NCBI GenBank assembly: GCA_903908245.1
Contig: CAIVRE010000030.1
Location: forward strand, 11,857-75,856
Direction: 5' to 3'
Origin: Candidatus Omnitrophota bacterium
Lineage (GTDB): Bacteria > Omnitrophota > Gorgyraeia > Zapsychrales > Fredricksoniimonadaceae
DNA length: 64,000 nt
Within the stretch, counting starts at the first letter, position 1, and each line of letters starts with the position of its first letter. The notes below the pieces were generated by a model. That model saw only the letters and a list, made by a program, of their open reading frames with translations. It made no database searches and had not been told where the DNA came from. This document shows, in pieces, positions 2,803 through 32,923 of this stretch. The translations under genes were made by a program, and so were the position numbers.

Positions 2803-3710
2803 TTCGCTCCGGGAATATTTTTTGCTCTTTCCTCATCTTCCGCCTTGAGCCTTTGCGCCAACGAAGAATCAGGATATTTCTCCAGGACTTCGTGCCTGAC
2901 ACTCTGAACATCGTCCAACTTTTTCAATGCGTCATACGCAGTCATCAACTTCTGATAAACATCCTGGATGAACGCACTCTCGATATCCCTGGAAAGGAAA
3001 AAATTCGCCCTGATAAACTCGAAACTTTTCACCGAAGCCTCATTATCCTTGGAATTATCACTCACCAAACCCTGCAGATAAACACTGGCGAACTTGAAAG
3101 GGATAAATATATCATCCGAAGAAAATCCCTGGATCGTCCTGCAGGTAAATTCCTCCAATAAAGCATCCGGATAACGGGCAGCGACTTTCCCGATCTCATC
3201 CGCAAAAAGCAATGCCTGTTCTTTATCGCCCGCCAAAAGAGCTTTATTAAATAAACAATAAGCACCCATGAATTCGGCATCCTTGGCGAACCTGCTGTTC
3301 GGATTATCTTTGGAAAACTGCGTAAACTTATCCGTCGCCTTCGCCAATAACGGCCCGGTCCATCCGGCCTCCTTGGACGATTGAAAAATATCACTCAAGA
3401 TCTGACCGAAAAGATCCCGCTTGTCGGCAGGTGCATACTCCCGGGGCGCTCCCGCACTGACAACAGGCGGTACAGCACCCTGCGCCGGAGAACCGGCACT
3501 CGCTGCCTGCCCATCCACCATATCGATCTCATCAAGGTAATATTTGATCGGCGTCCCGTTAAACTCAACCTCAACATATTCCGCGGTCTTGTTGATAAGC
3601 TTTCCTTCCACCACCTTTCCGGTCTTCAAATGAATAACCTCGGCGGAAACGATCAACGGGATAAAGATCCATACTGCTGTGGCAAAAACAATAACCATTC
3701 GCTTCTTCAT
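2799..3710 (-). CDS. hypothetical exported protein (signal peptide MKKRMVIVFATAVWIFIPLIVSA)
   Basis: ORF with N-terminal signal peptide, no recognisable catalytic motif; translationally coupled to the flanking DegT genes. Confidence 0.5.
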   Translation of the reverse strand: MKKRMVIVFATAVWIFIPLIVSAEVIHLKTGKVVEGKLINKTAEYVEVEFNGTPIKYYLDEIDMVDGQAASAGSPAQGAVPPVVSAGAPREYAPADKRDLFGQILSDIFQSSKEAGWTGPLLAKATDKFTQFSKDNPNSRFAKDAEFMGAYCLFNKALLAGDKEQALLFADEIGKVAARYPDALLEEFTCRTIQGFSSDDIFIPFKFASVYLQGLVSDNSKDNEASVKSFEFIRANFFLSRDIESAFIQDVYQKLMTAYDALKKLDDVQSVRHEVLEKYPDSSLAQRLKAEDEERAKNIPGAK

Positions 3711-4897: not shown

Positions 4898-6193
4898 TCA
4901 TTGGGACAGGACCGGTCTTTTTTTAAAAACTTCTTTGAGTATAGTATTGGCCATATTCTCGGCCAGCAGGCGGTTGCCTTTATCTGTACAATGGCCAAAG
5001 TCATAACCGAACGAATCACGGAAATATTCCCGGTAGCTGCCCTTCTCAAGCGCCGCTTTAAATATCTTTTCGTTATCCACGAAAACAACGCCTTCTGCCT
5101 TGCCTTGAAAGATCTTCTTTAACGGTCCCAAATTGCGAATGGGATACTGCGCACAGACATATACTATGCCTCTTTTATGCAGGATCGTCCGGAGTTTAAG
5201 ATAATTATTATTTGTCATTGGACAATAGTAACCTGCTCTTAATTCCCTGGCCTTCTTGCCGTATCTGCCCGCAAGCACCGAATTACCCTTTTCTATATTT
5301 AATACTTCCAATGCTCCGTATGTCATGTCATCTTTTGGATTGAGTTCTATTGCCCTCTTGAATGCCTCTTCCGCCTCGGCAAATTTATTCTGGTTCAGAT
5401 AAGAAACTCCCAGCTCAACATACGCCCAATCATTTTTAGGATCATGCCCTATTGTCCTCCTGAACAGCTCCTCCGCCTCGGCAAATCTCATCTGCCGCCG
5501 GTAAGAAACTCCCAGCTCAATAGGCGCCCTGGCATCTTTGGGATCAAGTTCAATGGCCCTCCTGAATAACTCATCCGCTTCAGAAAATTTACCCTGGCGT
5601 CGATAGAAAACTCCCAGCTCGACATCCGACCCATTGTTCTTTGAGTTGAGATCTAAAGGCCTGCCCTGGTTTGGAGAAGGAACTTCCTCCCTGTGAACAT
5701 CTTCTTTCTTCAGCTTCTTGAGGATATGCGTGTATATGAGCCGGCTGAACCTGTATGCCCGGCAGTGCCGAAATAGCCAGCCATCAGCCTCGGGTATGTC
5801 CTGATAATACATTATCCCGCCATCATTACACCCCATCATTGTTACCACTATATCAGGCTTATACTTGTCAAGATTCGCCTCTAATTGCGATAATATCACT
5901 CCTGTATCAATGCCGATCAATCCCCTGTCGATAACACTGAATTTAACGCCAACATTCCGCTGGTTAAGCACCTCCTCAAGAAACCGCGGGTATTGGTTCA
6001 GGGTGGTCGACTCTCCCAGGCACATGATGCGGCAAGAGCCTTTCTCTTTGATGGCTTGCAGGTTCTTATATTCCTGCAGGGATAACATTATAAAACCGCC
6101 CAGGCGCAAACCTGTCTCAAGGATCAAGGCAGCCAGGAACAATCCGCAAAATATGACGGCAAGTCTTTGATGTTTATAGAATTCAACCTTCAT
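4898..6193 (-). CDS. membrane-anchored SGNH/GDSL-family hydrolase with inserted TPR repeats (paralog 1 of 3)
   Basis: N-terminal TM helix; SGNH blocks GESTT (I), GCND (III), DFGHCT (V); ~5 TPR-like repeats (ELFRRAIELDPKDA...) between blocks III and V. Confidence 0.75.
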   Translation of the reverse strand: MKVEFYKHQRLAVIFCGLFLAALILETGLRLGGFIMLSLQEYKNLQAIKEKGSCRIMCLGESTTLNQYPRFLEEVLNQRNVGVKFSVIDRGLIGIDTGVILSQLEANLDKYKPDIVVTMMGCNDGGIMYYQDIPEADGWLFRHCRAYRFSRLIYTHILKKLKKEDVHREEVPSPNQGRPLDLNSKNNGSDVELGVFYRRQGKFSEADELFRRAIELDPKDARAPIELGVSYRRQMRFAEAEELFRRTIGHDPKNDWAYVELGVSYLNQNKFAEAEEAFKRAIELNPKDDMTYGALEVLNIEKGNSVLAGRYGKKARELRAGYYCPMTNNNYLKLRTILHKRGIVYVCAQYPIRNLGPLKKIFQGKAEGVVFVDNEKIFKAALEKGSYREYFRDSFGYDFGHCTDKGNRLLAENMANTILKEVFKKRPVLSQ

Positions 6194-10214: not shown

Positions 10215-11865
10215 TCAATTCTGCGATTGATCTAAAATAAAATTCCCCAGCACCAAATAATCCATCGCGCTCTTTTTAAAACTTGAAATAGCATCCTCGG
10301 GCGTACACACAACTGGCTCACCCCTCAAATTAAATGACGTATTAAGGATGACCGGCACCCCGGTTATTGATTCAAAAGCCTTGATAAGGCGCCAAAGTTT
10401 TGGATTTACGCCCTGACTGACCGTTTGAACACGCGCCGTTCCGTCGACATGCACAGCGCCGGGGATCGCATCTTTCTTTTCAGGCCTGACCCTGGGCGCC
10501 AGCAACATGAACGGCGATGCCCCCGACAACTCAAAAAAATCCCGGGCACGCTCCTCCAGGACCATCGGAGCATACGGGCGAAAAGGCTCCCTTTTCTTGA
10601 CTTTATTGTTCAAGAATTCCTTCATATGCGGATCACATGGATTGCCCAGGATAGACCTGCCGCCCAAGGCCCTCGGCCCGAATTCCATCTTTCCCTGGAA
10701 CCATCCCACGACCTTATTCTCCGCTATCTTCCGGGCGACAAACCCGGACAGCTCATCATCCCCCAACTCGCTAAAGATCATATTATGATTTACCAGGACC
10801 CTTTTGATCTGCTCATCGGCATAGCCCGGCCCTAAATACGCATGCCGCAGCCCCCAAAGCCCCTCCGCTATCCCCGGCCGCAGGTTGAATAAAAACCTCC
10901 TTAAAAAGGCCCTGCTCCAGGATCTTGCTGTTAGCGACGCAATTCAAGAACAATCCGCCGCCAAGGCACAATTTGTCAAGCTTCGTCTCATCATGAAGAT
11001 GCCGCGTGATCGTCAACAGGGTTTCTTCAACAAACTTTTGCAAACTGGCCGCGATATCACAATGCCGCTCATCGATCGGCGTTTCAGGCATTCGATCACT
11101 GCCGAACATTCTTAAAAACCGCCGGCTGTACATCCTGTCACCATGATTAAACCCGAAAAATCTTTCATCGATCCTGTAACTTCCGTCCGCGCTGACCTTA
11201 ACGATCTCTTTGAATCGATCCAAATACCTGGGCTTGCCACAACCGGCCAAAGCCATGACCGTCCCCTCCCCCTCATGCGCGGCAAATCCCAAATAAGTGG
11301 TCACAGCTGTATACAACAACCCCAGGGAATGAGGATACCGGATCTCCCTGCGGATCTGGATATCCCGCCCTTGACCACGGCCATACGTCATGGTCGCCCA
11401 TTCTCCAACAGCATCACCCGTCAAAATAGCCGCCTCATCAAACGGAGAAACCAGAAAAGAACCCGCCGCATGCGATAAATGATGCTTGATAAAAAAACAC
11501 TTCCCTTTAAACCCGATCTCCTTTTCCAATATCAACGGAAGGACCAGCCTGTCTTGCAGCCAATAAGGCACGGCCTGAAGAAAATTCCTTAACGAGAACG
11601 GGTAGGCCCGCAGGTGTTCAATGATGACCCGTGAAAACTTCAGGAACGGCTTCTCATAAAAACCCACATAATCGATCCCGGCAAACGTGATCCCGCCTTC
11701 CTGGATACAACAATTGATCGCATTAATGGGAAATTCCGATGTGTTCTTCCTGCGGGTAAATCGTTCTTCCTGAACAGCCGCCACAACTTCGCCGTCCCTG
11801 ATCAGGCACGCCGCAGCGTCATGATAATAACACGATATCCCTAAAATATTCATACCCGGCACCAA
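10215..11865 (-). pseudogene. NodU/CmcH-family O-carbamoyltransferase split by a frameshift near 10820-10860 (ORFs 10813-11865 and 10215-10781)
   Basis: N-terminal ORF MNILGISCYYHDAAACL...AGDSGGALGAAA; C-terminal part (KVVGWFQGKMEFGPRALGGRSILG...HVDGTARVQTV) in another frame. The C-terminal frame stays open upstream (AYLGPGYADEQIKRVL) across the N-terminal ORF's stop; the site is next to a C5/G5 homopolymer. Confidence 0.7.
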
Positions 11866-12305: not shown

Positions 12306-13385
12306 TTACGCCCCCTCATCCTGCTCCAACTTTTGCATCACACGTTTCAAAAGATCCTGGCCAAAATTGATCTCCAGAAGTTTTAACGCCTCCGACCGTG
12401 ACAATAATGATCCCCGGATCATTTTGCTCATTTCCACATGATAATGAGTATACCCAAAGTCCTTCATCGAGCGATAAACCGAGAGAAAATTCAAATAACA
12501 ATTGGTCGATGATCCAGGATAACTGAACCGCGGGAACTTCCAATTTAATTCCTTTTTCAATATTTCAACATAAACAGCGGGATCCATAGGCAAGAACCAG
12601 TGAGGTGAAACGACCGTGGCTTTATGGCGTTTCTTCGCGATATTCAAGACCTCTTCCATACTCCGGGGGAAATCCTTATATTTCAGGTTTTGCCGGGTAT
12701 ACCGGTCCAGGAACTCCCGGGTCGCTTTCGACATTGAAACAAATTCTGCCTGACGGGTATTACAACCGCAACGCGACGCCAACGGCTGGTGCATCACCTG
12801 TCCCTTGGTCCATCCTGCAACGATCATCGGAATATCAAAACGCGCCGCCATTTCAAAAGTAAGCCCCATATACCATATGGAACACGGATGACACAAAACA
12901 GCCTTATCGCCGCCCTTAACGATCGCGGCAAACATCTCTTTCATGAAATCCGACTTAAAAAGCAGGAGATCAACCCCCAATATCCGAACGGCATTGTGAA
13001 TATTCTCCAAAGCATCTTCTGTTTCAAAGCCATGGTCGAACGTGAACGCCAAAGGATTAAGCTTATAGCGCTTTTTCATATAATAAAGCGCCGCCGTACT
13101 GTCTTTCCCGCCGCTGCACATGACCAGGCAGTCATACCGCCCCCTGCTTTTATTCTGATCCAATATCTTGACAAAGTCACTTTCCAGAAATTTCACCGGC
13201 GGGTTGGCATCTTTTTGTTTGTCAAACTCATGACAAATATTACAAACACCGCTGCTGTCCAGCCAGATATCGGGCCTGCTTTCAGGCAGGACACACCGCT
13301 GGCAAAGGCTCCTCGGCTCCAACGCTATTTTTGTACCCGCAGAATCCATTGCTTTCCCCGCTGTTCGCTGGCGATAACCCGGCAC
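12306..13385 (-). CDS. N-acetyl sugar amidotransferase (PP-loop ATP pyrophosphatase, WbpG/PseA-like)
   Basis: N-terminal Zn-ribbon (CQRCVLPE...CNICHEF) and SGGKDS PP-loop. Confidence 0.75.
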   Translation of the reverse strand: MPGYRQRTAGKAMDSAGTKIALEPRSLCQRCVLPESRPDIWLDSSGVCNICHEFDKQKDANPPVKFLESDFVKILDQNKSRGRYDCLVMCSGGKDSTAALYYMKKRYKLNPLAFTFDHGFETEDALENIHNAVRILGVDLLLFKSDFMKEMFAAIVKGGDKAVLCHPCSIWYMGLTFEMAARFDIPMIVAGWTKGQVMHQPLASRCGCNTRQAEFVSMSKATREFLDRYTRQNLKYKDFPRSMEEVLNIAKKRHKATVVSPHWFLPMDPAVYVEILKKELNWKFPRFSYPGSSTNCYLNFLSVYRSMKDFGYTHYHVEMSKMIRGSLLSRSEALKLLEINFGQDLLKRVMQKLEQDEGA

Positions 13386-17434: not shown

Positions 17435-20158
17435 TTATCCCTGAACAACGATCCTTGCCATAAAAGCGACCTTTTCCTGCGGCCGGAGCGTTTTCAGTTC
17501 TTTTTCAAGATACTGCAGGACCCTGCCGCGATGGTAAAGATCCGAATTCACAACATTCATGATCGTGGTGACACTCGGGCCGCAAGGCAATATGCTGACA
17601 TCCGGCAACCCCTCCGGGCCCGAGATGCCGGCCGATACGGTCATAGATCCCCCGGGAACATCTTCCGTATTAACGCCCGAATGAACAACTTCCCAATCTT
17701 CATCAATATTGGCCTTGAACGGAGGCAAAACCCCGCTCACGCCATTGACGGAGAACTTGTCGTATCTTTCCGAGAGCATAACATTGGTCTGAATGCGATC
17801 AAGCTCGATCTCTTCAGCCGCGACCATCCAGGCGCGCAATTCGATCCGATCCCTGTCGAGCAATTTGATCTCCCAATACTGGCTCAACGGTAACCGCAGC
17901 CAATGGCCTTGAGCAACGATCGTATGCTCATCCATACGCTCGACTCTCCAGGCTGCCGTTAAACCGGAAGAATGCCACCTTCCCCTGCATCGCAAAGCAG
18001 TATAGACGCCAAGATTCTTCGTCAACTCTTTGCCTTTCCAAAAAAGCTGCCCCCGGCCCTGGTCAAAACAACAACTCAATTCACCCCGCTCAACCCTGCC
18101 GACAATTTTTTCATTGGCGACAATGTTTTTCCTGCCGAAAGAAGCCTCGACATTAAAACAGGCATATTCCCCGGGCTTGATCCTGCTCCCGCTCTCGCTC
18201 TCGACCTTCCAGACGCGGATCTCACGGGATCGGGAAAAAATATCGGAATTAAAGACCTTTACAAAATTATCCAGGCCATCCGCCCCCCTGAGCACCACGG
18301 CAGGGACATCATTGATCCGGCTGAACATCCCGACTTCAGACTGCCGGACACACCCGTGAAGGACATCAACCTCATACTCGAGAAAATCAGCCGAAAAATC
18401 CTTCTCAAGAGGGCCGCAGAACCATGATGTGTATCCTTTGACAAATACCCAGTTGAGCAAATGCTGTTCAATGGAGACTTCTTCACTGACCTCTATAAAA
18501 ACTTTAAACCGGAACGCATCTTCCCCGGCCGCCTCGATCTCCCAGACCTGGATAACCGGCAGATCCGGCCAGGACACCTTGATGATCATTTTATCATCGG
18601 AGACCTTTTCAACCGTCCATTGCGCAAACGTAGACAAATACCTTCGTCCGCCAACGTAAACAGAAGACACAACGGAATTCAACGCCACCGGGACAGGCCC
18701 CCGGCGAACAATATCGCATCGCCCGTTATTAAAGATCAGATTCACCGTTTTAAGCGATACGGTATAACCTGCCCGCAAGCCGTCCAGATATTGCTCCAGG
18801 TCCGGGACATTCAAAAGGAACTTGCCCGAAAACCAGTGCGAATGGTCCGTTTGCGGCATATTATGCTGCGCGCCGGATATCCTGTATTGCAGGACCCTTG
18901 AATCAACGATAGAGTCGGCATTCAATATCTGGGCCCTGCACTGATCATCCCGGCATTCCAGGATCAATCCAGGCAATCCCGCGTCATCGGGCCCCGAAGG
19001 CATCACGCCCATGCATTGATGGGGAATATTCTTTTCAATGAACGACTGCCAGTCCTTGCTGTTCTGGTCAATGGGCGGGAAATGCCCTTTCTCGGAAGGA
19101 GTGAACCAGTCGGCATACTCCTTCTGCAATAAGATATTAATATATCCTTCCTGAATATCCAAAGCCTCATCCGCCTCGACCGCCACGTCCCATTTCAACC
19201 CGTGATCTTCGGTGATCTCTATTTTCCAGACCAGGGTCAACGCCAGCTGATATATTCTTCCCCGGGCCACGAACCGTGTTTCGCCCTCTTTCTGCACTTC
19301 CCAATCCGCCTGAAAAGAATTGTAATTCCTGCCTTCGATCTGAAACCGGGTATATCCCCCGGAATTCGACGTGACCGGCCTGTCGTTCCAATTAAAGAAT
19401 ATCCGGCCGTTATTAAAAATAACCGAAAGAGGGCCTTTAGCCAACACTGCGACTTTCTCCCTGGCGCCGATCATCTGCGTGTAAAAAGGGATGACTTTCT
19501 CGGCCAGGCCGTCTTTCATTATCCTTCCGTCTTTAACAAGAATGACCCTTTGGCAAAGCCTGCGCAGCATATTCATGTCATGCGTCACACAAATGATCGT
19601 CGTGCCGGAATCTTTAAGCTCAAATATCCTTTTAATACACTTCTTTTGAAAGAACTCATCCCCCACGGCGAGAATATCGTCGATAACCAGGATCTCGGGC
19701 TCAACATGGATCGCGGCGGAGAACGCCAGGCGTACGAACATGCCCTGGGAATAGCATTTTACCGGAGCGTCGATGAACCGGCCGATATCGGCAAAATGGA
19801 TGATCCGCTCCACGATCTCCGCCTGCCTGGCCTGATCGATGCCGGACAAATTCAAATTAAGATATACATTCTCCCGTCCGGTCAATTCCGGCTGGAAGCC
19901 GGCCCCCATTTCCAGAAGCCCTGCCACTCTTCCGGCAACCCTGGCTTCTCCCCGGTCCGGCTTCAAAAGCCCTGCAATGACCTTCAGGAGCGTTGTCTTG
20001 CCGGCCCCGTTCTCTCCGATGATCCCCAGTGTTTCACCGGCCTCGATCTGGAAACTGATCCCTTTCAAGGCCCAGAAATTCTCCCAGGAAACCTTGCCGC
20101 CGACAACGAACTTGATCCGGTAAATTTCCCAGACATCCTTCAGATCTACAATAGCCAT
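17435..20158 (-). CDS. wzt: Wzt/TagH-like polysaccharide-export ABC ATP-binding protein (907 aa) with long C-terminal extension holding three tandem ~200-aa repeats
   Basis: Walker A GENGAGKTT, ABC signature YSQGM, Walker B ILVIDD in first ~240 aa. Repeats start IFNNGRIFFNWNDRPV / LIFNNGRCDIVRRGPV / QLFWKGKELTKNLGV, with conserved W..E.....G.W..LP..Q.WEI positions. Confidence 0.85.
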   Translation of the reverse strand: MAIVDLKDVWEIYRIKFVVGGKVSWENFWALKGISFQIEAGETLGIIGENGAGKTTLLKVIAGLLKPDRGEARVAGRVAGLLEMGAGFQPELTGRENVYLNLNLSGIDQARQAEIVERIIHFADIGRFIDAPVKCYSQGMFVRLAFSAAIHVEPEILVIDDILAVGDEFFQKKCIKRIFELKDSGTTIICVTHDMNMLRRLCQRVILVKDGRIMKDGLAEKVIPFYTQMIGAREKVAVLAKGPLSVIFNNGRIFFNWNDRPVTSNSGGYTRFQIEGRNYNSFQADWEVQKEGETRFVARGRIYQLALTLVWKIEITEDHGLKWDVAVEADEALDIQEGYINILLQKEYADWFTPSEKGHFPPIDQNSKDWQSFIEKNIPHQCMGVMPSGPDDAGLPGLILECRDDQCRAQILNADSIVDSRVLQYRISGAQHNMPQTDHSHWFSGKFLLNVPDLEQYLDGLRAGYTVSLKTVNLIFNNGRCDIVRRGPVPVALNSVVSSVYVGGRRYLSTFAQWTVEKVSDDKMIIKVSWPDLPVIQVWEIEAAGEDAFRFKVFIEVSEEVSIEQHLLNWVFVKGYTSWFCGPLEKDFSADFLEYEVDVLHGCVRQSEVGMFSRINDVPAVVLRGADGLDNFVKVFNSDIFSRSREIRVWKVESESGSRIKPGEYACFNVEASFGRKNIVANEKIVGRVERGELSCCFDQGRGQLFWKGKELTKNLGVYTALRCRGRWHSSGLTAAWRVERMDEHTIVAQGHWLRLPLSQYWEIKLLDRDRIELRAWMVAAEEIELDRIQTNVMLSERYDKFSVNGVSGVLPPFKANIDEDWEVVHSGVNTEDVPGGSMTVSAGISGPEGLPDVSILPCGPSVTTIMNVVNSDLYHRGRVLQYLEKELKTLRPQEKVAFMARIVVQG

Positions 20159-20206: not shown

Positions 20207-21685
20207 TTAATGCGCCCCGGCCTCTTCCAACAAAGTAACGCCAAAAACATCGCGCAAAATAACCCGGGCAATATTCCCGGCCAACATGGTGTTGCCCAGG
20301 TCCGTACAATGGCCAAAGTCCCCGGCGAACCTGTCCCTGAAAACCTGCTCGAAACGGTATTTCTTCAACGCATCCTTGAACAGCCTTTCATTATCGACAA
20401 AACTGACATTCTGGCGTTGGTCCGCAGGGAAAATCTGTTTTAACGGCTCTATATTGCGCATGGCATACTGCACACACACAAGGCGGATCCCGTGCTGATC
20501 GAGCAATTTCTTTATTTTATGGTAATTTTCCACAGTCACCGACGCATACCCTTGCGGCGCTACGGCATACCCCCGCGCAAGATAATCCTCACTCAAATCA
20601 AATTTCCCAAGGACACGGTAAACATGAGCCAGGCCGAAATAAGGGCTGACATCAATGATCCCACCCGGCTTATTAAGCTCTATGGATTCTTTATACCGCA
20701 CCACCGCCTCATCATACCGGCCCTGCGCCGCGGCCACTTCCCCGGCGAACAGGCTTATCCATCCGGCATGACAATGATCCATAAGGGCCTTCAGCAAAAC
20801 TTCCGCTTCTGCATACTTATGCATGGCGATCAATTGGACAAATAGCATCCTCAGGTCCCCGCTCTCTCGAGGGCATAACACAAATTCTTTTTTATATTTC
20901 TCGATCATCCGTTCGAGCATCTTTTGCTGCTCTTTCGGCTCACACAGCCACATCAACCTGAAATAAGCATCGGAATTCCCGGGATTGATCCTGATGGCCT
21001 TATGGAACGCAAATTTTGCCGCATTGACCTTGCCCTGAGCGTTAAGCTCCATACCGCGTTTCACATAAAAACTGTCATCTCCCGGCGACACAACCGCCGG
21101 CTGCGGCATTGTTGCGCCGCCTGAGGCAACGGGCAACACCCCTGGTCGAGGCTCTCCTGGCGCCTCCTGCTTCTTTTCCCCCCACTTAGCCTGAATATGC
21201 AGGCCAAGCAATTGCATAAGCTTGTATGTTTTTAAAGCCTGGAAAAAATTCTGCCCGTGCGCATTGAACCCGGCGGGCATGTGCCTGGCACCCGCGTCAT
21301 TAATGCCGATCATGGCCACCACCGCATCAGGCCTGTATTTTCTGATATTACTCTCCATCCTTTCAAGGATAAGATCCGTATTGGTCGCCGACAAACCTTC
21401 ATCAATAACGCTGAACTGTGTTTTGATCCGCTGGGCATTGAGGATCTTTTCAAGGAACCGCGGGTACTGCCCCTGCGTCGTCGATTCCCCGACACACATG
21501 ATCCGGTAGGCCGCCCCGTTCTTACTAGCGGACCAATTCTTGTACTGCTGTACAGCCAGAATAACAAAACCCGCTGTCTGCAGCCCTATTTCAAGAATGA
21601 CCAAAGTAAGGAATACGCCAAACAACATCAGCGCTATTCTCTGGCCTGGAGAACTTACCGTTGGGGGTTTTTGATCCTTTTCCAT
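20207..21685 (-). CDS. membrane-anchored SGNH hydrolase with inserted TPR repeats (paralog 2)
   Basis: TM helix, CVGESTT, GIND, DFGHCT blocks and TPR repeats; collinear with 4898-6193 and 21721-23208. Confidence 0.75.
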   Translation of the reverse strand: MEKDQKPPTVSSPGQRIALMLFGVFLTLVILEIGLQTAGFVILAVQQYKNWSASKNGAAYRIMCVGESTTQGQYPRFLEKILNAQRIKTQFSVIDEGLSATNTDLILERMESNIRKYRPDAVVAMIGINDAGARHMPAGFNAHGQNFFQALKTYKLMQLLGLHIQAKWGEKKQEAPGEPRPGVLPVASGGATMPQPAVVSPGDDSFYVKRGMELNAQGKVNAAKFAFHKAIRINPGNSDAYFRLMWLCEPKEQQKMLERMIEKYKKEFVLCPRESGDLRMLFVQLIAMHKYAEAEVLLKALMDHCHAGWISLFAGEVAAAQGRYDEAVVRYKESIELNKPGGIIDVSPYFGLAHVYRVLGKFDLSEDYLARGYAVAPQGYASVTVENYHKIKKLLDQHGIRLVCVQYAMRNIEPLKQIFPADQRQNVSFVDNERLFKDALKKYRFEQVFRDRFAGDFGHCTDLGNTMLAGNIARVILRDVFGVTLLEEAGAH

Positions 21686-21720
21686 AAAATCCGCTCCATT
21701 GAACAGGACACTTCCGAGAT

Positions 21721-23208
21721 CTATCTCATCTTCAAGACTTCTTTTATAACAACACCGGCTATCTGCTCCGCCAAAAGCTTATTCCCCAGACTGGTGCAAT
21801 GCCCGAAATCACCTCCGAACATATCCAGGAAATATTCATGGATATGCCCGCCAGCTACCGCCGCTTTGAACACCCCCTCATTATCAACAAAAAAAACTCC
21901 GTCCGAGGACGCAAAGATCTTCTTAAGCACCGAGACTTTACGCATGGGATACTGCACGCAGACCAGCTTGATCTTTCTTCGATCCAATATCGCCTTCAAA
22001 TTCCGATAATTTGTAACAGTAAACAAACTGTAGAAATCATCGTCCAAAGACTTTACCGTCGGCTCATAAACCGCGGCCTCTTTGGCCTTCCCCATCTCCT
22101 GATAAAACAGCATCAACCTTCGATAACAACGGTCATTCTTCGGGTTTTTTTCGATATACCATTTTAATTCTTTCTCGGCATCGGCATATCGCTTCTGGAT
22201 CATATAAATATAAACCAAAGAAAAAGTCACATTCTCGTTTTTATTATTGAAAAACTCCGCCTTCTTATACGCCGCTTCCGCCTGCTCATATTTCTTCTGA
22301 AACAAATAAAGATCTCCCAATGAGCAATATACCACTGCATCACCGGATGTTAATTCAATGACCTTTAATAACAAGGCCTCCACAGACTCCCAGCGGTTGG
22401 TGCTCCTATAGATCCATGACAACCCGTAATAAGCCTGGGCATTCCGGGGGTTCTTTGCCAAAACCTCATTGAACGCCTTCTCTGCCTGTTCCTGGTCCCC
22501 CCTCGAAAAAGCATCCCACCCGTCGGATAAGAACTTCTGTTCATCCGCCGAATGACGGCCGCCCGAAACACCAAGGAGCTCCTGACCGCTTGAAAGCCCA
22601 AAATTCTTCAATTTCTTCCCTTTTACCTCCGCCGGCGGCTCAGACAAGCCAGGAGCCTGCACGGCAGAAGGCTTTGCCGTACGGATCTCTTGCATTTTTG
22701 CTGTCAAATGAAGCCGCAAGAATCGAGCTAATTTACAAACACGCAAAGAGAACAACCACTGAACAAACCCCGATGAACCCTTTACCTGCTGCGGCATATG
22801 CAGCCCCTGATCGTTGATCCCCATCATCACCACGACCAGGTCCGGCTTATATTTATCCAGATTCACTTCCAGTTGCTCCAGGATCACATCGGTGTTAACC
22901 GAAGGCATCCCTTTATCAATAACGCTAAATTTTATATCCTTACCACGACGATTAAGCGCCTCTTCAAGAAAAGGGGGATATTGCTTTGCGGTAGTAGACT
23001 CCCCCAAACACATAATACGATAACCATTGGCCCTTAAAGAACGCAAATTCTCGGACTCCTGAAGAAAATAGAATATTGCGCCGCCTATACGCAGCCCTGA
23101 TTCCAGAAGGACAAGACACAGGAATATCCCGAATAAAACAAGCCCTGTTTTCTGCAATAATGTCGTCCTGAACTCACTGCGCGGCTCATTGCTCATAAGA
23201 TCGATCAA
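21721..23208 (-). CDS. membrane-anchored SGNH hydrolase with inserted TPR repeats (paralog 3)
   Basis: TM helix, CLGESTT, GINDQG, DFGHCT blocks and TPR repeats. Confidence 0.75.
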   Translation of the reverse strand: MIDLMSNEPRSEFRTTLLQKTGLVLFGIFLCLVLLESGLRIGGAIFYFLQESENLRSLRANGYRIMCLGESTTAKQYPPFLEEALNRRGKDIKFSVIDKGMPSVNTDVILEQLEVNLDKYKPDLVVVMMGINDQGLHMPQQVKGSSGFVQWLFSLRVCKLARFLRLHLTAKMQEIRTAKPSAVQAPGLSEPPAEVKGKKLKNFGLSSGQELLGVSGGRHSADEQKFLSDGWDAFSRGDQEQAEKAFNEVLAKNPRNAQAYYGLSWIYRSTNRWESVEALLLKVIELTSGDAVVYCSLGDLYLFQKKYEQAEAAYKKAEFFNNKNENVTFSLVYIYMIQKRYADAEKELKWYIEKNPKNDRCYRRLMLFYQEMGKAKEAAVYEPTVKSLDDDFYSLFTVTNYRNLKAILDRRKIKLVCVQYPMRKVSVLKKIFASSDGVFFVDNEGVFKAAVAGGHIHEYFLDMFGGDFGHCTSLGNKLLAEQIAGVVIKEVLKMR

Positions 23209-25575: not shown

Positions 25576-27486
25576 TTAATCACAAAAACACGGCAGCAAA
25601 CACGGCCAGTGGCATTTCCTGGCCGCCGCCCTGGCCTTGACGATCTGAGGCCCCATCATGATCTCTTTAAGCGTTTGCTTGCGAATATCCCCGTAAGCTG
25701 AAAAACAGGTGGTGCACATCCCCTGGTTGGAGACCAGGATCGTTTTCTCTCCCGAATGGCACTGGACATCATCGCAGGTCAAACTGCCGCGGTAATATTT
25801 CTTCATCAGCTCAAGATTCCGGGCCGAGTTCTTTATAAATCCGGGGGCTTCTTCTTTCAACTTTTTAAGCTGATCAAGGGAATTATCCAACAAAGAAAAC
25901 CTTTCTTCCTTGACCCAGAACGGAGAATGCTTCCTTTCCGCCATCATCAGATTGTTGGGCAGCAAAGCCTGGAATTGCAGGGAATTGGCCCCCAGCGACC
26001 TGACAAAATCCACCAGCGCGGCCAACTCTTCCAGGTTCTCATTAAAGATGATCGTGATCAGATTGAAATTCACCTGCGGATGCTTCCTCTTGAGCGCCGA
26101 AAGCGCCTGCAGCCCCTGGACCGTTTCCTGCCAGGCTGTATCGGAATTCCTGACATGATTATGCGTCTTTGCCTGCAAGGAATCCAGCGAAACGACCGGA
26201 GCAATGGTGCCGTCCAGTAAATATGGCTCCAACCGGTCCATATATTTATTGATCAATATGCCATTGGACAGGATCCCCAAGTTCTTGATCCCGATCGACC
26301 GGGCGTGATCCATGATCTCAAAAATATCTTTTCTTAATAAAACCTCGCCGCCGGATAAAGCGATCTCCGCAAAGCCCGACTCTTTCCCCTGGGACAGCAT
26401 GCTCCTGACACTGTCCAGATCCATATCTTTCTCATCCCGGGACGTTTTCCAGATATCGCAGATCCGGCAGCTTAAATTACAGGCATGCGTGATGTCCAAT
26501 ATCAGCAGGTTCGGACGGTCCGCCTTTTGCGGCCGCTCCTTTTGTATCAGATCAGCGCCGGCCCTGAAAAATTCCACGATATTGCCCGCGATATAAAAAA
26601 CCTTGTGCAACGCAAAAAGAGCGAATACAGCCGCTTTCTTTAAAGGGTGCCTGATCTTGTGTTCATGGATCAGCGCCGTCCCAAGCCTGCAGCTGAACCA
26701 GGGGATCTTAAGGCTATTGATCAATGTCGCTGCCCAGAACTCCAGCGTCCCTGTCCTCAATTCCTTGAGCAAAGGATGATCACGGTGTAAATACGCGACA
26801 AGATAATTCCCCCTGCCGTATTTATACGCCTGGTCCGCACAGCTGCGCAGCGTGTCCTCGCGATAATGGGTCACGCGGATGTCTTTGTTCCAAATGAACC
26901 TGTGCCCTTTCTTATAAAGCCGCCAGGACAGCTCCAGGTCTTCACCGCCGGGCAACGGAAAATCCTCGTTGAATCCTTCCGCTGCCAGAACATGCCGTTT
27001 GAACGAAACATTGCATGTAGGAAAAAATATCGTCTCCCGGCTCCCCTTGATCTCCGTCTCAATGCTGCCATTGGCCAGGAACTGCCCCAGGAGCACCGGC
27101 GCTCTGTCGGTAGCCGTCACCGTTAATCCGCCGATCGCGGCGATACCGGGATTCTCTTCATGCGCGCGCGCCATGGACCCCGCCCAATCGGCCGCGGCGA
27201 CACAATCATCGTCGATAAAACAGATGACCCCTCCCCGGGAATGTTTGATCCCAAGGTTCCTCGCGACCGCGGGGCCCTGATGATCCTGGGTGAGGCACTT
27301 AAGATTCGCATGCCCGATCCTTAACTGATCGACCAGGCTGTTTGTCGCGGGACTGCCGCCATCATTGACCACCACGATCTCTATCGCGTCCTGAGGATGA
27401 TCCTGGGCAAACAGCGAAGCCAGGCACCGGGCCAGCATTGCATCCCGGCCGCGCGTAGGAATAATGACGGAAACCTGAACACTCAT
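25576..27486 (-). CDS. bifunctional fusion: N-terminal GT2 glycosyltransferase (~310 aa) + C-terminal radical SAM/SPASM domain (~320 aa)
   Basis: N-terminus VSVIIPTRGRDAML...VVVNDGGS...FIDDDC (GT2). From ~aa 320: ILDITHACNLSCRICD (Cx3Cx2C), LSGGEVLLRKD, C-terminal CDDVQC...CTTCF...CHWPCLLPCFC. One uninterrupted 636-aa ORF. Confidence 0.8.
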   Translation of the reverse strand: MSVQVSVIIPTRGRDAMLARCLASLFAQDHPQDAIEIVVVNDGGSPATNSLVDQLRIGHANLKCLTQDHQGPAVARNLGIKHSRGGVICFIDDDCVAAADWAGSMARAHEENPGIAAIGGLTVTATDRAPVLLGQFLANGSIETEIKGSRETIFFPTCNVSFKRHVLAAEGFNEDFPLPGGEDLELSWRLYKKGHRFIWNKDIRVTHYREDTLRSCADQAYKYGRGNYLVAYLHRDHPLLKELRTGTLEFWAATLINSLKIPWFSCRLGTALIHEHKIRHPLKKAAVFALFALHKVFYIAGNIVEFFRAGADLIQKERPQKADRPNLLILDITHACNLSCRICDIWKTSRDEKDMDLDSVRSMLSQGKESGFAEIALSGGEVLLRKDIFEIMDHARSIGIKNLGILSNGILINKYMDRLEPYLLDGTIAPVVSLDSLQAKTHNHVRNSDTAWQETVQGLQALSALKRKHPQVNFNLITIIFNENLEELAALVDFVRSLGANSLQFQALLPNNLMMAERKHSPFWVKEERFSLLDNSLDQLKKLKEEAPGFIKNSARNLELMKKYYRGSLTCDDVQCHSGEKTILVSNQGMCTTCFSAYGDIRKQTLKEIMMGPQIVKARAAARKCHWPCLLPCFCD

Positions 27487-27503: not shown

Positions 27504-28283
27504 TCAGATCTTCTTTAAAATACCGGGTTCGAATTTAATGAATATCGCCAGACCCAGGGACAAACTGGCCATCGCGAATAACACGACCTGAATGAATACC
27601 GCCGGCCCCGGCAGCACCCCTTCGAAAATGATCTTTTGATAGAAAGCGATATACGGCGTCAGCGGATTGACGTTGTATATCCAATGGAACTGCGCGGGGA
27701 CCATTGCCATCGAATAAAAAACAGGGGTGACCCAGAACCAGAACATCAGTACCACGCTTAAAAGATGCTCAATATCCCGAAAAATAATATTGAGAACAGA
27801 TAACGCCAGGCAGAGACCCGCCGTTAAACAAAGAAGCAGGACAAAGATCAGCGGGAGCAGCCAGGCCAGAATAATGATCTTTGGATTAAAGAACAGGAAG
27901 ATCGGGTACATCACGACCCAACCGATAAGAAAATTAAGGAAATTCGCGATGACCGATGCCAGCGGAAAGATCACAACAGGGACATTGTATTGCCGCATAA
28001 TGCCCTGTCGATTCAATATGGAAGCGGGCGCCTCGGACAATGCGTTCGAAAAGAACATCCACGGGATAATGCCTGACAGGACAAAGAACGGATAATTGGC
28101 AATGCCGGCCTTAAAGACCTGGGTAAAAACAAAAGCGATCGCGGACATGATCAAAAGAGGATTGATGACCGCCCAGAAGATCCCCAAAAGAGAGCCGGCA
28201 TACCGGCTCCTCAATTGCGCGATCGACAGGCTCCACAACGCATGTCGAAAATAAAAAATGTTTTTAACCAAACCTTTATCCAT
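27504..28283 (-). CDS. wzm: ABC-2-type polysaccharide-export permease (Wzm/KpsM/TagG-like)
   Basis: 259-aa polytopic membrane protein with the ABC-2 pattern (FWAVINPLLIMSAIAFVF...). Confidence 0.8.
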   Translation of the reverse strand: MDKGLVKNIFYFRHALWSLSIAQLRSRYAGSLLGIFWAVINPLLIMSAIAFVFTQVFKAGIANYPFFVLSGIIPWMFFSNALSEAPASILNRQGIMRQYNVPVVIFPLASVIANFLNFLIGWVVMYPIFLFFNPKIIILAWLLPLIFVLLLCLTAGLCLALSVLNIIFRDIEHLLSVVLMFWFWVTPVFYSMAMVPAQFHWIYNVNPLTPYIAFYQKIIFEGVLPGPAVFIQVVLFAMASLSLGLAIFIKFEPGILKKI

Positions 28284-29577
28284 GGGCCAACCGCTCCCCG
28301 GTCTTTATCCCGTCGAGGATCGCATCTTCCATCGACATATAACGCCAGCTCCCGTAGCGCCCGCAAGTCAGGACCCGATGCGCCTGGAGGAACTTGAGGA
28401 TCTCCCCCCGCGCCGCCGCATAACCCTTGTCATACACAGGATAAGCGTACTCAATATCATTGATGTCGCGAACAAGCACCGCATCGCCCGCTGACAGCAA
28501 TCCGACTTTCTCCAGGTCCTGTTCAATGCGCGCAACGATCCCGGCCTTATCCAGCGGTTTCTGCCTGGAATACGAAACCTCCGCGTACAAAGAGCTTTTC
28601 CCCGCCGGAACAAGATCGGACGAGAAATTATGATAAAACCCCACCCGAAAAAAGCTGATATCTTTCTGTGGAAAATAGGCCCAATGTTTCTTGCTCGGAC
28701 AGGCCTGCCGCAACCCGAGGTTCAAATTGAACAGGGAGTTCCAGCGCAAACGGCCGAACGCGGCCTTGATCCCCCTGGGCAGGCCGCTGATCATGCCGGA
28801 CAATTCCGGCAGGGGGATCGTCGAGACCAAATGAGCGTAATCCTGCTTCACGCCATTGGAAAACTCGACCCGCTGCTTCTTCAGGTCGATCGTCCGGACC
28901 TTAAACCCCGTATGGATATTATCCAGGCCCGCCTTTAACGCCCGGGGAAGCGCTTCGATCCCGCCTTTGCGGGGATACCAGAAATGCGCGTTATAACCCA
29001 AAGGCTCCTGCCGGCCCGGACCGCCGGACACCTGGCGCAGCGTGGGTTGAGGCACAAACCCTTCCGTCCAGGCGCACGTCATCATCCTTGGAGAGACCGT
29101 CCAGAACTTCGTGTTATACGGGACCATAAAATGCTTCGCGATCCCGTCCCCAAACGTCCCCTTGATCCAGCGCGCAAGGTCCGCACCCGCCTTTACACGC
29201 GAACCCCGGCGCGCCTTGATAAAACCGTCAAGGCACTCTTTCCGGACATTGTCCGGCAACGCCGAAAGATTGGCCTGAAAAGGATACCCGATGAACCGCT
29301 CATGCGAATAGACCCAAGCGCTTCTCTGATGCCCCGCCAGGCCTTCTTTCAGCAATCCATTGACCAGGCCCAAAGACCCTTTATGCCTGAAATGGAGCAA
29401 ATGTCCGTCGATATCAAACGTGAACCCTTTGGCCTTCCTTGACCGGCACAACCCCCCGACCTCAGGTTCTTTTTCATAAACATGGCACGCCTGCCCCTGC
29501 CCCTGCCCCTGCAGATGCCTGGCCGCGCTCAGGCCCGCCAGCCCCGCGCCAAGGATAACATACCCCTTATCTGTCAT
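28276..29577 (-). CDS. FAD/NAD(P)-binding oxidoreductase, UDP-galactopyranose-mutase-like
   Basis: N-terminal Rossmann GxGxxG (VILGAGLAGLSAA), EKEPEVGG; resemblance to Glf/amine-oxidase folds. Precise function uncertain. Confidence 0.5.
   Translation of the reverse strand: MTDKGYVILGAGLAGLSAARHLQGQGQGQACHVYEKEPEVGGLCRSRKAKGFTFDIDGHLLHFRHKGSLGLVNGLLKEGLAGHQRSAWVYSHERFIGYPFQANLSALPDNVRKECLDGFIKARRGSRVKAGADLARWIKGTFGDGIAKHFMVPYNTKFWTVSPRMMTCAWTEGFVPQPTLRQVSGGPGRQEPLGYNAHFWYPRKGGIEALPRALKAGLDNIHTGFKVRTIDLKKQRVEFSNGVKQDYAHLVSTIPLPELSGMISGLPRGIKAAFGRLRWNSLFNLNLGLRQACPSKKHWAYFPQKDISFFRVGFYHNFSSDLVPAGKSSLYAEVSYSRQKPLDKAGIVARIEQDLEKVGLLSAGDAVLVRDINDIEYAYPVYDKGYAAARGEILKFLQAHRVLTCGRYGSWRYMSMEDAILDGIKTGERLAHG
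29491..29512. repeat. hexanucleotide microsatellite (ctgccc)x3.5 encoding GQGQGQ in the oxidoreductase
   Basis: Seen directly: ctgcccctgcccctgcccctgc. Confidence 0.7.
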
Positions 29578-30553
29578 TGCGCTCCGCCTTCATCAGCACC
29601 CTGAAGAAAATATAACTTGTCAGCAAGACCGCCAATATCAACAGCCCGCCCGCCCAGTCATCGCATTGGCTAAGAATGATCCCGCAAACCGCGGCGAACA
29701 ACGACAAGCCCAGCAGGACCAACAACGCGCTTTTGCGCGTCAGGCCCAGCGCGACCAGCCGAAGCGCCATATGATCATCACTTTTATTGAACGGAAGAAT
29801 GCGCTTGCTGCAACGAAAATAAATAAGGACGGCTGTTTCCAGAAGAGGGACCCAGAACAGAAGGATCGGGCTCAATAACGCGACCGGCTCACCCCTTCTG
29901 GCATAACTGACCATTAACGCCAATGCCGCCAGGACAAACCCCAGGAAATGGCTCCCGGCATTGCCCAGATAGATCCTTGCCGGAGGAAAATTAAAGAACC
30001 CAAAACCCGTGATCACCGCGAAAAGGCCCAGCGCCAATATCCGGGCATTCACATCGGGATAAAAGAACGTAAGGGCGAATATGGCCCCTGTCACCGTCAA
30101 GGCCACGCCGGCGCTTAACCCGTCGATGACGTCGAGCAGGTTAAAGGCATTGGTGATCCCGATGATCCACAAGAACGTGACCAGGGCATTACCCCAGTCA
30201 TTAAGATAGATCATATGCGTCCTGACATCGATCAGGATCAGCACGACCGCACATACAGACTGCAGCAGGAGCTTCTGGACAACCGACGCCTCTTTCAGGT
30301 CGTCCATCACCCCGAACGCCAGCATCGCCAGGGATATGCCCAGGACACTCATGATCCTGCCGGGATCAATGCCGAAACCAATAACCCCTAGGACAGAGGA
30401 AACCACCAGAGCGCCGCCTATCCCGATCCCGCCGACAAGCGCGATCTCGCCGGATACCAGGACACGGGTCCTGAACGCCAGGCGGCGCAACACCACCATC
30501 AATAACAGGCTGCAAACCAGTGCCGACGAAGCGACCAGGTAATATTTAAACAT
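29567..30553 (-). CDS. polyprenyl-phosphate N-acetylhexosamine-1-phosphate transferase (WecA/WbpL/MraY family, GT4 membrane)
   Basis: Polytopic membrane protein with VMDDLKE and NAFNLLDVIDGLSAG motifs. Confidence 0.8.
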   Translation of the reverse strand: MFKYYLVASSALVCSLLLMVVLRRLAFRTRVLVSGEIALVGGIGIGGALVVSSVLGVIGFGIDPGRIMSVLGISLAMLAFGVMDDLKEASVVQKLLLQSVCAVVLILIDVRTHMIYLNDWGNALVTFLWIIGITNAFNLLDVIDGLSAGVALTVTGAIFALTFFYPDVNARILALGLFAVITGFGFFNFPPARIYLGNAGSHFLGFVLAALALMVSYARRGEPVALLSPILLFWVPLLETAVLIYFRCSKRILPFNKSDDHMALRLVALGLTRKSALLVLLGLSLFAAVCGIILSQCDDWAGGLLILAVLLTSYIFFRVLMKAERNDR

Positions 30554-31756: not shown

Positions 31757-32923
31757 ATGTTTATATTATTACTATTTTTTATAACTCTCCGGCCGTTCAT
31801 CTGTTCTTTTGCCTTTCTTGAACCCGAGATCATTTATGCGACACTGCTGTCCCTCTTTCTTCTTTCCTGGATATTTATAAAGAAGATCGAGCTGGCGACC
31901 TCCCCCAGGATGACCATCGCCCTTTCCCTGTTCCTGCTTGCCCTGGCCGTATCCCTGATATTCTCCAAAAACCAGATGTTCGCGGCCATCCACACCTGTC
32001 AGTTCATTAACGGCCTCCTGCTTTTCCTTGTTTGCCGATCCCTGCCCCGTGAAAAGATCCCTGCGGTCCTGCTGTCAATGCTGATAACCGCCCTGTTCAT
32101 TTGCGCCCTGGCATTATATCAATCCTTCGGAAAGGCACCCGAAGCCCTCACATCAAAAAATATCATCGACCAGATAGGCATCACTTATATCGAACAACAC
32201 CGGGCCTACGCTCCTTTTATCACACCCAACGCGCTGGGGGGCTACCTCATCCTCATCATCCCCCTTGCCTTCACCCTCAAAAACCGGGCCTGGCTGGCGG
32301 CCCCCCTGATCCTTACCCTCCTCCTGACCAAATCCCTGGGAGCGATCATCAGTTTCACCGCAGCCACAACACTATATTTTTATTTTCAAGGCAACTTAAA
32401 GAAAAAACGCATGAGGACTATCCTGCTCGGGCTTATCGCCGGCGCTCTCATCATCTTCCTGATCAGGGCACAGGCGAACCAGCACATATTCCAGCCATCA
32501 TTCTCTGTTCAAATGCGCCTGGAATACTGGCGGCTAACCTGGAAACTCATCAGCGCATATCCTTTAACAGGAACAGGCCCGGGCTGTTTCGACCTGCCCG
32601 ATGCGCGCTACACCCACAATTCTTACCTGCAGCTCTGGGCAGAAACAGGGATAATAGGCATAACATCTTTCCTTTACCTGCTGTTTACCCTGTTCAAATC
32701 GGGACGGGGCATCTTAAAAGAAGGGCTTGATAAAAACCTGGCCGCCGGATTAATATGGGCCTCCGTCGGCTTCTTTATCCACAACTTTTTTGATTTTACG
32801 TTCTTTCTGCCGGAAGTTTCGTTTATGTGTTGCGTTGTCCTGGGGTTGCTCTTGAACCGCTCGCCCCTCTCCGGCGCAGCGCTGATAAAAGATAATGGCA
32901 CCGGGCAAGAAAGATCCCGATAA
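31757..32923 (+). CDS. O-antigen ligase/polymerase-like membrane protein (Wzy_C domain)
   Basis: ~10 predicted TM helices; HNSYLQLWAETGIIG-type motif. Only plus-strand gene; AT-rich divergent promoter region 31710-31756 shared with the GT4 gene. Confidence 0.7.
   Translation: MFILLLFFITLRPFICSFAFLEPEIIYATLLSLFLLSWIFIKKIELATSPRMTIALSLFLLALAVSLIFSKNQMFAAIHTCQFINGLLLFLVCRSLPREKIPAVLLSMLITALFICALALYQSFGKAPEALTSKNIIDQIGITYIEQHRAYAPFITPNALGGYLILIIPLAFTLKNRAWLAAPLILTLLLTKSLGAIISFTAATTLYFYFQGNLKKKRMRTILLGLIAGALIIFLIRAQANQHIFQPSFSVQMRLEYWRLTWKLISAYPLTGTGPGCFDLPDARYTHNSYLQLWAETGIIGITSFLYLLFTLFKSGRGILKEGLDKNLAAGLIWASVGFFIHNFFDFTFFLPEVSFMCCVVLGLLLNRSPLSGAALIKDNGTGQERSR

Follow-up and report, generated by a model that had tools for sequence, protein, structure and literature searches.

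Proteins that combine an SGNH-fold domain with tetratricopeptide repeats (TPR) are known from the biosynthesis of the Vi capsule. TviD of Salmonella Typhi and Bordetella is an SGNH-fold O-acetyltransferase encoded in a surface-glycan locus that depends on an ATP-binding cassette (ABC) transporter, and its C-terminal TPR domain does not serve catalysis but mediates membrane association and binding of the TviE polymerase (PMC8760489). The enzyme is cytoplasmic and dependent on acetyl-coenzyme A, has a Cys-His(-Asp) centre, lacks the SGNH blocks II and III as well as a transmembrane helix, and its homologues were reported in Vi-type loci only (PMC8760489). Here we describe three paralogous proteins, A, B and C, which are encoded on 64,000 nucleotides of contig CAIVRE010000030.1 (positions 11,857 to 75,856, forward strand) of the Candidatus Omnitrophota bacterium assembly GCA_903908245.1. 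This whole 64-kb stretch is referred to as the window, and coordinates are positions within it. Like TviD, these proteins unite an SGNH-type domain of the acyl-handling kind with a TPR array in one polypeptide, and they belong to a surface-glycan locus with an ABC transporter. However, they have a Ser nucleophile, all four SGNH blocks, a TPR array nested inside the catalytic fold and an N-terminal hydrophobic helix, features that set them apart from TviD as it has been described.

A second relevant system is that of alginate synthesis, in which the TPR protein AlgK is reported to bind the SGNH-like protein AlgX (PMC9734138). AlgX, like AlgJ, WssI and PatB, is a periplasmic SGNH-like enzyme that acts on an exported polymer (PMC9734138, PMC4148444). 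In the Omnitrophota proteins the enzyme and the TPR array form one chain with the canonical four SGNH blocks, whereas an ALGX-type domain, a carbohydrate-binding module (CBM) and an MBOAT partner such as AlgI are lacking, and the associated pathway is Wzm/Wzt-dependent rather than synthase-dependent. An anchoring N-terminal helix is shared with AlgJ. Membrane-held extracytoplasmic SGNH domains that act on O-antigen or peptidoglycan are also present in OafA, OafB and OatA, which are AT3-SGNH fusions with a polytopic AT3 domain that delivers acetyl groups, and in Ape1, an SGNH protein with an inserted CBM35 and hence an example of a binding module nested within an SGNH fold. The Omnitrophota proteins differ from these in having a single helix and no AT3 domain, and in carrying a TPR array where Ape1 carries its CBM. 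By analogy, they may work most like TviD or like an AlgK-AlgX pair condensed into a single chain, yet they lack the defining features of either and those of the AT3-SGNH fusions.

Our analysis revealed that A, B and C represent a large, lineage-specific and mis-annotated family of nested SGNH/TPR proteins, which is tied to an unusual glycan cluster rich in radical SAM enzymes. In the literature library searched, no paper on such a family was found, and TviD and AlgK-AlgX surfaced as analogues. No Pfam or NCBIfam model covers the nested architecture, and an NCBIfam scan gave no family model for these proteins, since only TPR-containing families matched, all of them far below their cut-offs.

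Three SGNH proteins with a nested TPR array

The three genes are intact open reading frames (ORFs) on the minus strand. Gene A (20207-21685) encodes 492 amino acids from an ATG start. Gene B (21721-23208) encodes 495 amino acids if read from the TTG at 23208, or 491 from the ATG at 23196, four codons further on, a start that public gene calls use as well; the public protein P0001 is 100% identical to B. Gene C (4898-6193) encodes 431 amino acids. The proteins are pairwise 35-42% identical, and a hidden Markov model (HMM) built from 58 members of the family matched exactly these three in the window. The same locus has been independently assembled in several other metagenomes. The initial annotation of this region had proposed three paralogous, membrane-anchored SGNH-type proteins with TPR repeats between blocks III and V, and the ORFs, motifs, HMM matches and hydrophobic helix agree with this proposal.

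A, B and C share the motifs GESTT (block I), FSVIDxG (block II), GxND (block III) and DFGHCT (block V) in the canonical SGNH order. Block II had been overlooked in the initial annotation, which listed the other three correctly. All motifs are on the minus strand. They are located at 21476-21490 (GESTT), 21395-21415 (FSVIDEG), 21296-21307 (GIND) and 20303-20320 (DFGHCT) in gene A; at 22990-23004 (GESTT), 22909-22929 (FSVIDKG), 22810-22821 (GIND) and 21793-21810 (DFGHCT) in gene B; and at 6002-6016 (GESTT), 5921-5941 (FSVIDRG), 5822-5833 (GCND) and 4985-5002 (DFGHCT) in gene C. The nucleophilic Ser of block I is Ser68 in A, Ser71 in B and Ser62 in C.

The conservation of these residues was examined in an alignment of 58 diverse homologues. 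The Ser of block I, the Gly of block II, the Asn of block III and the His of block V do not vary in these sequences or in A, B and C, and neither does GESTT as a whole. G100, G130, N132 and D133 (B numbering) of blocks II and III are likewise invariant in the 58 sequences. The block II Gly and the Asn of the block III GxND motif form the oxyanion hole of SGNH/GDSL hydrolases. The Asp of block V gives way to N, E or S in some homologues at related loci, a change that SGNH enzymes tolerate, and the His stays constant. Among 138 family ORFs at these loci, 113 have GEST in block I and 8 have other variants, mostly GDSx, while the search pattern for block I found no match in the remaining 17, which are fragments or divergent members. 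A structural disulfide between the conserved Cys that follows the catalytic His and a Cys at the end of strand 4 was considered and appears unlikely, as homologues with GHA or GHF in place of GHC retain the second Cys.

In the native proteins, the Pfam family Lipase_GDSL_2 (PF13472; cut-off 32.9 bits) matches the N-terminal half only, with 36.4 bits for A, 35.3 bits for B and 30.9 bits, just below the threshold, for C. When the insertion was excised in silico, the scores rose to 39.7, 38.7 and 31.9 bits, respectively, and the match became longer and spanned the junction. A profile of 27 insert-excised sequences matched small Lipase_GDSL_2 carbohydrate esterases best among the structures of the PDB, namely 7ddy (E-value 1e-6), 3p94 (4.5e-5) and the acetyl-xylan esterase Axe2 (4oao, 1.4e-4; see also 3w7v), and these alignments continue across the excision point. 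The esterases have the four blocks in the same order, but they are soluble, single-domain proteins of about 200-230 residues with neither anchor nor insertion. The E-values of only 1e-6 to 1e-4 mark the family as a distant branch. Taken together, the invariance of the block I, II, III and V residues in 58 members and the matches of the excised profile to SGNH esterases speak in favour of catalytic competence.

AlphaFold2 (AF2) models of B (predicted local distance difference test (pLDDT) 79.9, predicted template modelling score (pTM) 0.57) and of C (pLDDT 81.8, pTM 0.74) show one and the same layout, in which a long N-terminal helix is followed by a beta-alpha first half of the SGNH fold, a helical insertion and a second half, consisting of a helix, two strands and the block V loop, that completes the fold. 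In B, the N-terminal hydrophobic helix, which would act as a signal anchor, and a stalk comprise residues 17-59 (23032-23160, minus strand), as judged from the AF2 model, hydropathy, charge bias and conservation. The first SGNH half spans residues 60-135 (22804-23031, minus strand), with predicted strands at 63-69, 94-100 and 124-128, and the second spans residues 393-495 (21724-22032, minus strand), with a helix at 395-410 and strands at 414-418 and 438-441.

Between the two halves lies the nested insertion, which was delimited in B with the aid of the AF2 model, Pfam TPR families and Foldseek (residues 136-392; 22033-22803, minus strand). It begins with a conserved basic and hydrophobic helical hairpin (147-176), in which Y158, R162 and H167 are near-invariant, and continues with a disordered linker rich in Pro, Ala and Ser (177-220) and the TPR array (221-385), so that the insertion contains the TPR repeats that had been annotated but also two elements ahead of them. 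The array itself is placed inside the SGNH fold, after block III and ahead of the helix leading into strand 4. The insertion covers about residues 134-382 in A (20540-21286, minus strand) and residues 126-324 in C (5222-5818, minus strand).

The repeats are not a low-complexity artefact. TPR_1, TPR_2 and TPR_19 of Pfam are significant in A, B and C (TPR_1 in C with an E-value of 4.6e-24), the AF2 pLDDT over the repeats is 80-97, and Foldseek aligned the arrays with crystal structures of consensus TPR proteins and MamA at target-normalised template modelling (TM) scores of 0.78-0.90, the highest being that of the C array against consensus TPR, and root-mean-square deviations down to 1.6 A. The earlier count of about five repeats per protein proved too uniform, as B has four helix pairs and a capping pair, C has three canonical repeats and a capping pair, and the array of A is degenerate with two Pfam-significant units only. 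Family members are 422 to 697 amino acids long, depending on how many repeats they have. We regard A, B and C as bona fide members of the SGNH superfamily with a bona fide TPR array.

Family size and age of the paralogues

With B as the query, 739 of the 8,000 candidate proteins scored were significant, and the best 120 of these 739 all had E-values below 1e-102, most with near full-length coverage. The relatives that have a name are labelled 'tetratricopeptide repeat protein' or 'PilF'. In a second search, the TPR-free first 140 residues of B were compared exhaustively with 1.84 billion proteins, which gave 3,044 representatives of 50%-identity clusters at E-values of at most 1e-3, of which 1,625 were at or below 1e-10. 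At least 483 loci in species-representative genomes encode a relative. The hosts are mostly metagenome-assembled genomes (MAGs) of Omnitrophota, and some are labelled Elusimicrobia, Planctomycetales, Patescibacteria, Firestonebacteria or Sumerlaeota. The architecture was initially called unusual, which holds in comparison with characterised enzymes only, for it is found in thousands of Omnitrophota proteins.

Multiple copies are common. Among the 78 related loci that were kept for closer analysis (numbered with the prefix L), there are 21 tandem pairs as well as arrays of three, four and seven genes; one MAG, PLLJ01, has at least 15 copies distributed over six contigs. The longest array (L032, 1208-11768, plus strand) consists of six complete family genes in tandem and a seventh that is truncated at the contig edge. 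At another locus (L008, 9995-16378, plus strand) there are four head-to-tail copies, and the parts compared, about 110 residues at the beginning and about 110 at the end, are nearly identical. This would point to a recent local amplification in some lineages, unlike the duplication in the window, which is old. More distant relatives with the same N-terminal 'LE..LR' helix and SGNH blocks (GDSF... DxxHC) have a different central insertion (L006, 18361-19824 and 13227-14495, both minus strand; L061, 3783-5051, plus strand), which suggests that the family is part of a broader superfamily, whose members would be anchored SGNH enzymes that differ in the nested module.

A recent expansion in the window, which had been raised as one explanation for the three copies, is contradicted by the comparison with another Omnitrophota MAG. 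Locus L001 has the same tandem pair, of which the upstream copy shares 69% identity with B and the downstream one 65% with A, but the identity between A and B is only 35%. The duplication thus predates the split of the two species, and both copies have been kept. Comparison of the paralogues with one another gave 48-67% identity for the SGNH halves but only 20-28% for the TPR arrays, which indicates that the chemistry was retained while the TPR module diverged.

The N-terminal helix and membrane topology

A single hydrophobic stretch, about 30 residues long, is present close to the N-terminus of every member of the family, and a hydropathy scan of the members found no second segment above a mean hydropathy of about 1.5. 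In the AF2 model of B, residues 17-59 form one continuous helix. A cleavable signal peptide is unlikely, as the stretch is long and conserved, small residues are absent from positions -1 and -3 and the helix is unbroken up to residue 59. The domain would be periplasmic in both cases, whether the helix is an anchor or a cleaved signal. Several polar residues and glycines of the helix are near-invariant (E36, R40, G42-G43, Q50 and N54; B numbering). Because of these near-invariant polar residues, the helix appears to be more than a plain anchor.

On average, the 58 members have 3.8 Lys and Arg in the 15 residues before the hydrophobic core and 1.9 in the 15 residues after it. According to the positive-inside rule, this bias favours an N-in/C-out orientation, from which we infer that the catalytic and TPR domains are likely to be periplasmic. 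The periplasmic O-acylation or deacylation originally envisaged for these proteins is, in this respect, a reasonable reading, although their assignment to the AlgX/AlgJ/WssI group is not. Pfam gave no match to ALGX/DHHW-type domains at E-values of at most 1, neither with the native nor with the insert-excised sequences, and no Acyl_transf_3 match in A, B or C, the hydrophobic part of which is limited to the single N-terminal helix.

The glycan cluster around A, B and C

A, B and C lie within a co-directional glycan cluster of about 36 kb (774-36117, minus strand), which was delimited by Pfam and NCBIfam scans. The remainder of the window contains housekeeping genes. The same scans identified a Wzm-like ABC-2 permease (27504-28283), a Wzt-like ABC ATPase of 907 amino acids (17435-20158) and a WecA-like GT4 glycosyltransferase (29567-30553), all on the minus strand, and A and B are placed between the wzm and wzt genes. 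The intergenic gaps of the cluster are 6-48 bp, there is an 11-bp overlap between the start of C and the stop of the GT2 gene upstream of it, and A, B and C appear to be co-transcribed with the polysaccharide cluster. In a scan of the 17-25 kb region for promoters and terminators, the counts were close to the shuffle expectation.

The cluster is characterised by its radical SAM genes, of which nine lie within about 27 kb (774-27486, minus strand). Three of these have a B12-binding domain, four have a SPASM domain, one has neither and one is a GT2 fusion. A comparable density was found at other Omnitrophota loci such as L038 and L053. The fusion protein (25576-27486, minus strand; 636 amino acids) has its GT2 domain at residues 6-157 and its radical SAM domain at residues 332-495. 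Homologues of it adjoin family genes at L034, L043, L046, L049, L051, L053 (three copies) and L061 (two copies), and we know of no characterised GT2-radical-SAM fusion. The best NCBIfam matches of the radical SAM genes in the window are peptide maturases and C-methyltransferases, all far below the cut-off. A role of these neighbours in the maturation of ribosomally synthesised and post-translationally modified peptides was therefore considered and rejected, because the maturase matches are so weak and because sugar-tailoring enzymes and GT2 fusions are encoded in between these genes.

Other genes of the cluster encode a WbuX-like N-acetyl-sugar amidotransferase (12306-13385, minus strand), a NodU/CmcH-type carbamoyltransferase (10215-11865, minus strand), GT1 and GT2 glycosyltransferases, two DegT aminotransferases and two epimerases. 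The carbamoyltransferase is split into two ORFs, one for the N domain (10813-11865) and one for the C domain (10215-10781), which are separated by 31 bp. A frameshift, an in-frame stop or a genuine division of the gene could account for this. The pairing of the carbamoyltransferase with a WbuX-like amidotransferase, as seen in the window, is kept almost without exception at other loci. In the Wzt-like ATPase, the nucleotide-binding domain comprises about residues 26-235, and the C-terminal portion of about 670 residues, which has no Pfam match, may be an unusually large glycan-recognition domain. An O-antigen-ligase-like (Wzy_C) gene (31757-32923, plus strand) is the sole plus-strand gene of the cluster with a Pfam match, and its presence is in favour of a route in which the exported polymer is ligated to lipid A-core. 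Between the two DegT genes lies a gene (2799-3710, minus strand) for a 303-residue protein that has an evident signal peptide and, in a short N-terminal domain, a match to the NCBIfam family Lepto_7_Nterm (LA_0442/LA_0875). Among the housekeeping genes there is one (47599-48381, minus strand) for a 260-residue protein with TPR repeats and a C-terminal, peptidoglycan-binding SPOR domain.

Only three polytopic proteins are encoded in the window, namely the ABC-2 permease, the WecA-like GT4 and the Wzy_C protein, and none of them is an acyl carrier. Accordingly, no MBOAT or AT3 (Acyl_transf_3) acetyl-donor partner was found in the 64-kb window, although a partner may be encoded elsewhere in the genome. 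This finding and the lack of an ALGX-type domain argue against the original analogy with AlgX, AlgJ and WssI.

The association with such genes was examined at the 78 related loci. Pfam domains among the 141 immediate neighbours of family genes were Radical_SAM (23), SPASM (8), carbamoyltransferase (7), PMT_2 (7), B12-binding (6) and GT2 (5). Homologues of the radical SAM proteins in the window accounted for 14.9% of the genes at positions +/-1 as compared to 4.7% at 8 or more positions away, and the respective values for carbamoyltransferase and WbuX were 6.8% and 0.7%. Gene maps showed family genes interleaved with Wzm/Wzt, radical SAM, GT2-radical-SAM and carbamoyltransferase-WbuX genes at about 40 loci, and family genes are located next to Wzm/Wzt also at L001, L037, L038, L039 and L055. 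As recognisable cluster genes within 10 kb were found at only about half of the loci, some members of the family may work elsewhere. Within 10 kb, PMT_2 proteins were the commonest (15) of 82 polytopic neighbours, followed by MFS_1 proteins (6) and ABC-2 permeases (5), and neither MBOAT nor Acyl_transf_3 was among the best 25 of the 54 families matched. PMT_2-type GT-C enzymes such as ArnT and PMT act at the periplasmic face.

Proposed function and alternative explanations

The function that we favour, and which we regard as plausible though somewhat short of probable, is that of a periplasm-facing, type-II-anchored glycan esterase or transacylase that is targeted by its TPR array. The protein would span the inner membrane once, with the N-terminus inside and the C-terminus outside, and its SGNH domain, with a Ser-His(-Asp) centre, would be located in the periplasm, where the conserved anchor and stalk would position the active site on the inner membrane's outer face. 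Docking of the enzyme would be the task of the TPR superhelix, and the partner may be the polymer or a part of the export or tailoring machinery. Ester-linked acyl groups would then be stripped at the SGNH site from the glycan that radical SAM enzymes have tailored and the neighbouring Wzm/Wzt transporter exports, or from the lipid-linked form of this glycan, and acyl transfer would be less likely than removal. Hydrolysis is preferred over transfer because of the four canonical blocks, because the nearest solved relatives are small carbohydrate esterases and because no acyl-donor partner was found. The paralogues would share this chemistry but differ in the TPR array, and hence in the partner or site that they address. 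A separate target for each paralogue is compatible with their conserved catalytic halves and divergent arrays.

Several observations weigh against this proposal. The membrane topology was deduced from the charge bias as the single line of evidence, and conserved basic residues are present on the C-terminal flank of the helix as well. Confidence in the inter-domain geometry of the AF2 models is low to moderate (pTM 0.57 and 0.74), and the Foldseek matches listed, in which TPR proteins dominate, include no SGNH structure. Recognisable cluster genes within 10 kb are present at only 40 of the 78 related loci, and no enzyme that would install an ester was identified within the window. Moreover, ABC-transporter-dependent glycans are normally finished in the cytoplasm. 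TviD, the one characterised enzyme of such a pathway that combines SGNH and TPR domains, is indeed cytoplasmic (PMC8760489).

The last two points lead to the alternative with the strongest precedent, namely that the catalytic and TPR domains are cytoplasmic, as in TviD, and that they perform an acyl-CoA-dependent O-acylation before export, with the TPR array tethering the enzyme to a glycosyltransferase or to the Wzm-Wzt complex. The TPR domain of TviD does bind a polymerase and the membrane (PMC8760489), the position of A and B between wzm and wzt recurs as an adjacency at the five related loci named above, and a cytoplasmic enzyme would need no MBOAT or AT3 partner, in line with the absence of such partners from the window and from the best 25 of the 54 neighbour families. 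However, the N-terminal tail, which in most members contains 3-6 basic residues, would then have to be translocated, and the PMT_2 neighbours are indicative of the periplasmic face. The catalytic centre argues against it too, since the family has canonical Ser, Gly, Asn and His blocks in place of the Cys nucleophile and missing blocks II and III of TviD (PMC8760489), and its TPR array is nested rather than C-terminal. We therefore consider this alternative unlikely, but still one to be taken seriously. A periplasmic O-acetyltransferase of the AlgX/AlgJ/WssI/PatB type, which would pass acetyl groups received from an MBOAT or AT3 protein to the polymer, would agree with a membrane-anchored and probably periplasmic SGNH-like domain in a polysaccharide cluster, and a fusion of the functions of AlgK and AlgX is conceivable in view of their reported binding to each other (PMC9734138). 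Yet the proteins match neither ALGX- nor DltD-type Pfam families at E-values of at most 1, the partner was missing both from the window and from the best 25 of the 54 families of polytopic neighbours, and four fully canonical blocks are more typical of hydrolases, which makes this type of enzyme very unlikely here.

Finally, the link with glycan clusters may be partial or indirect, and the proteins may be envelope esterases or lipases that act on peptidoglycan O-acetyl groups, lipids, lipoproteins or peptides and proteins bound by the TPR array. Such a role would fit the roughly one half of related loci that have no recognisable cluster genes within 10 kb, the very high copy number of at least 15 in one MAG, the usual preference of TPR arrays for peptides or proteins, and a catalytic domain that sits directly on the membrane and is accompanied by the conserved basic and hydrophobic hairpin. 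The best NCBIfam matches of the SPASM and B12-binding radical SAM neighbours are peptide maturases as well, albeit far below the cut-offs. On the other hand, the link to radical SAM, carbamoyltransferase, WbuX and Wzm/Wzt genes becomes weaker the farther these are from family genes, radical SAM genes are interspersed among genes for sugar tailoring and GT2-radical-SAM fusions, and in the window the starts and stops of A, B and C overlap or abut those of glycan genes. We consider a function outside glycan metabolism unlikely for these reasons, although members of the family outside such clusters may have one.

Two more far-reaching extensions of the favoured esterase function can be formulated. 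The SGNH/TPR proteins might be the periplasmic acyl-editing arm of a hitherto undescribed glycan-tailoring system that is conserved throughout Omnitrophota, which could comprise radical SAM enzymes, GT2-radical-SAM fusions, carbamoyltransferase and WbuX together with Wzm/Wzt export, and in which the TPR array of each paralogue would serve as an exchangeable address for another partner or site. This is a speculative idea that we regard as quite unlikely. If true, the number of paralogues, which is three here and at least 15 in one MAG, would set the combinatorial surface diversity in ultra-small, host-associated bacteria. In a bolder variant, the conserved Glu- and Arg-bearing transmembrane helix could have a part in the delivery of the lipid-linked substrate or of the acyl group, so that no MBOAT or AT3 partner would be needed.

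Significance

The chemistry of the family is probably ordinary ester hydrolysis or transfer, and no current view is overturned by it. Acyl editing of surface glycans by SGNH enzymes shapes antigenicity, recognition by phages and predators, and envelope stability, and TPR scaffolds organise polysaccharide export machines; in the present family, the scaffold is nested within the catalytic fold. This family has undergone a great expansion in a phylum without cultured representatives, where it is hidden by the public label 'tetratricopeptide repeat protein'. Its recognition provides a better annotation for thousands of proteins and a marker for a recurrent, radical-SAM-rich glycan cluster of Omnitrophota. 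The soluble ectodomains are, moreover, a tractable target for learning what Omnitrophota display on their surface.

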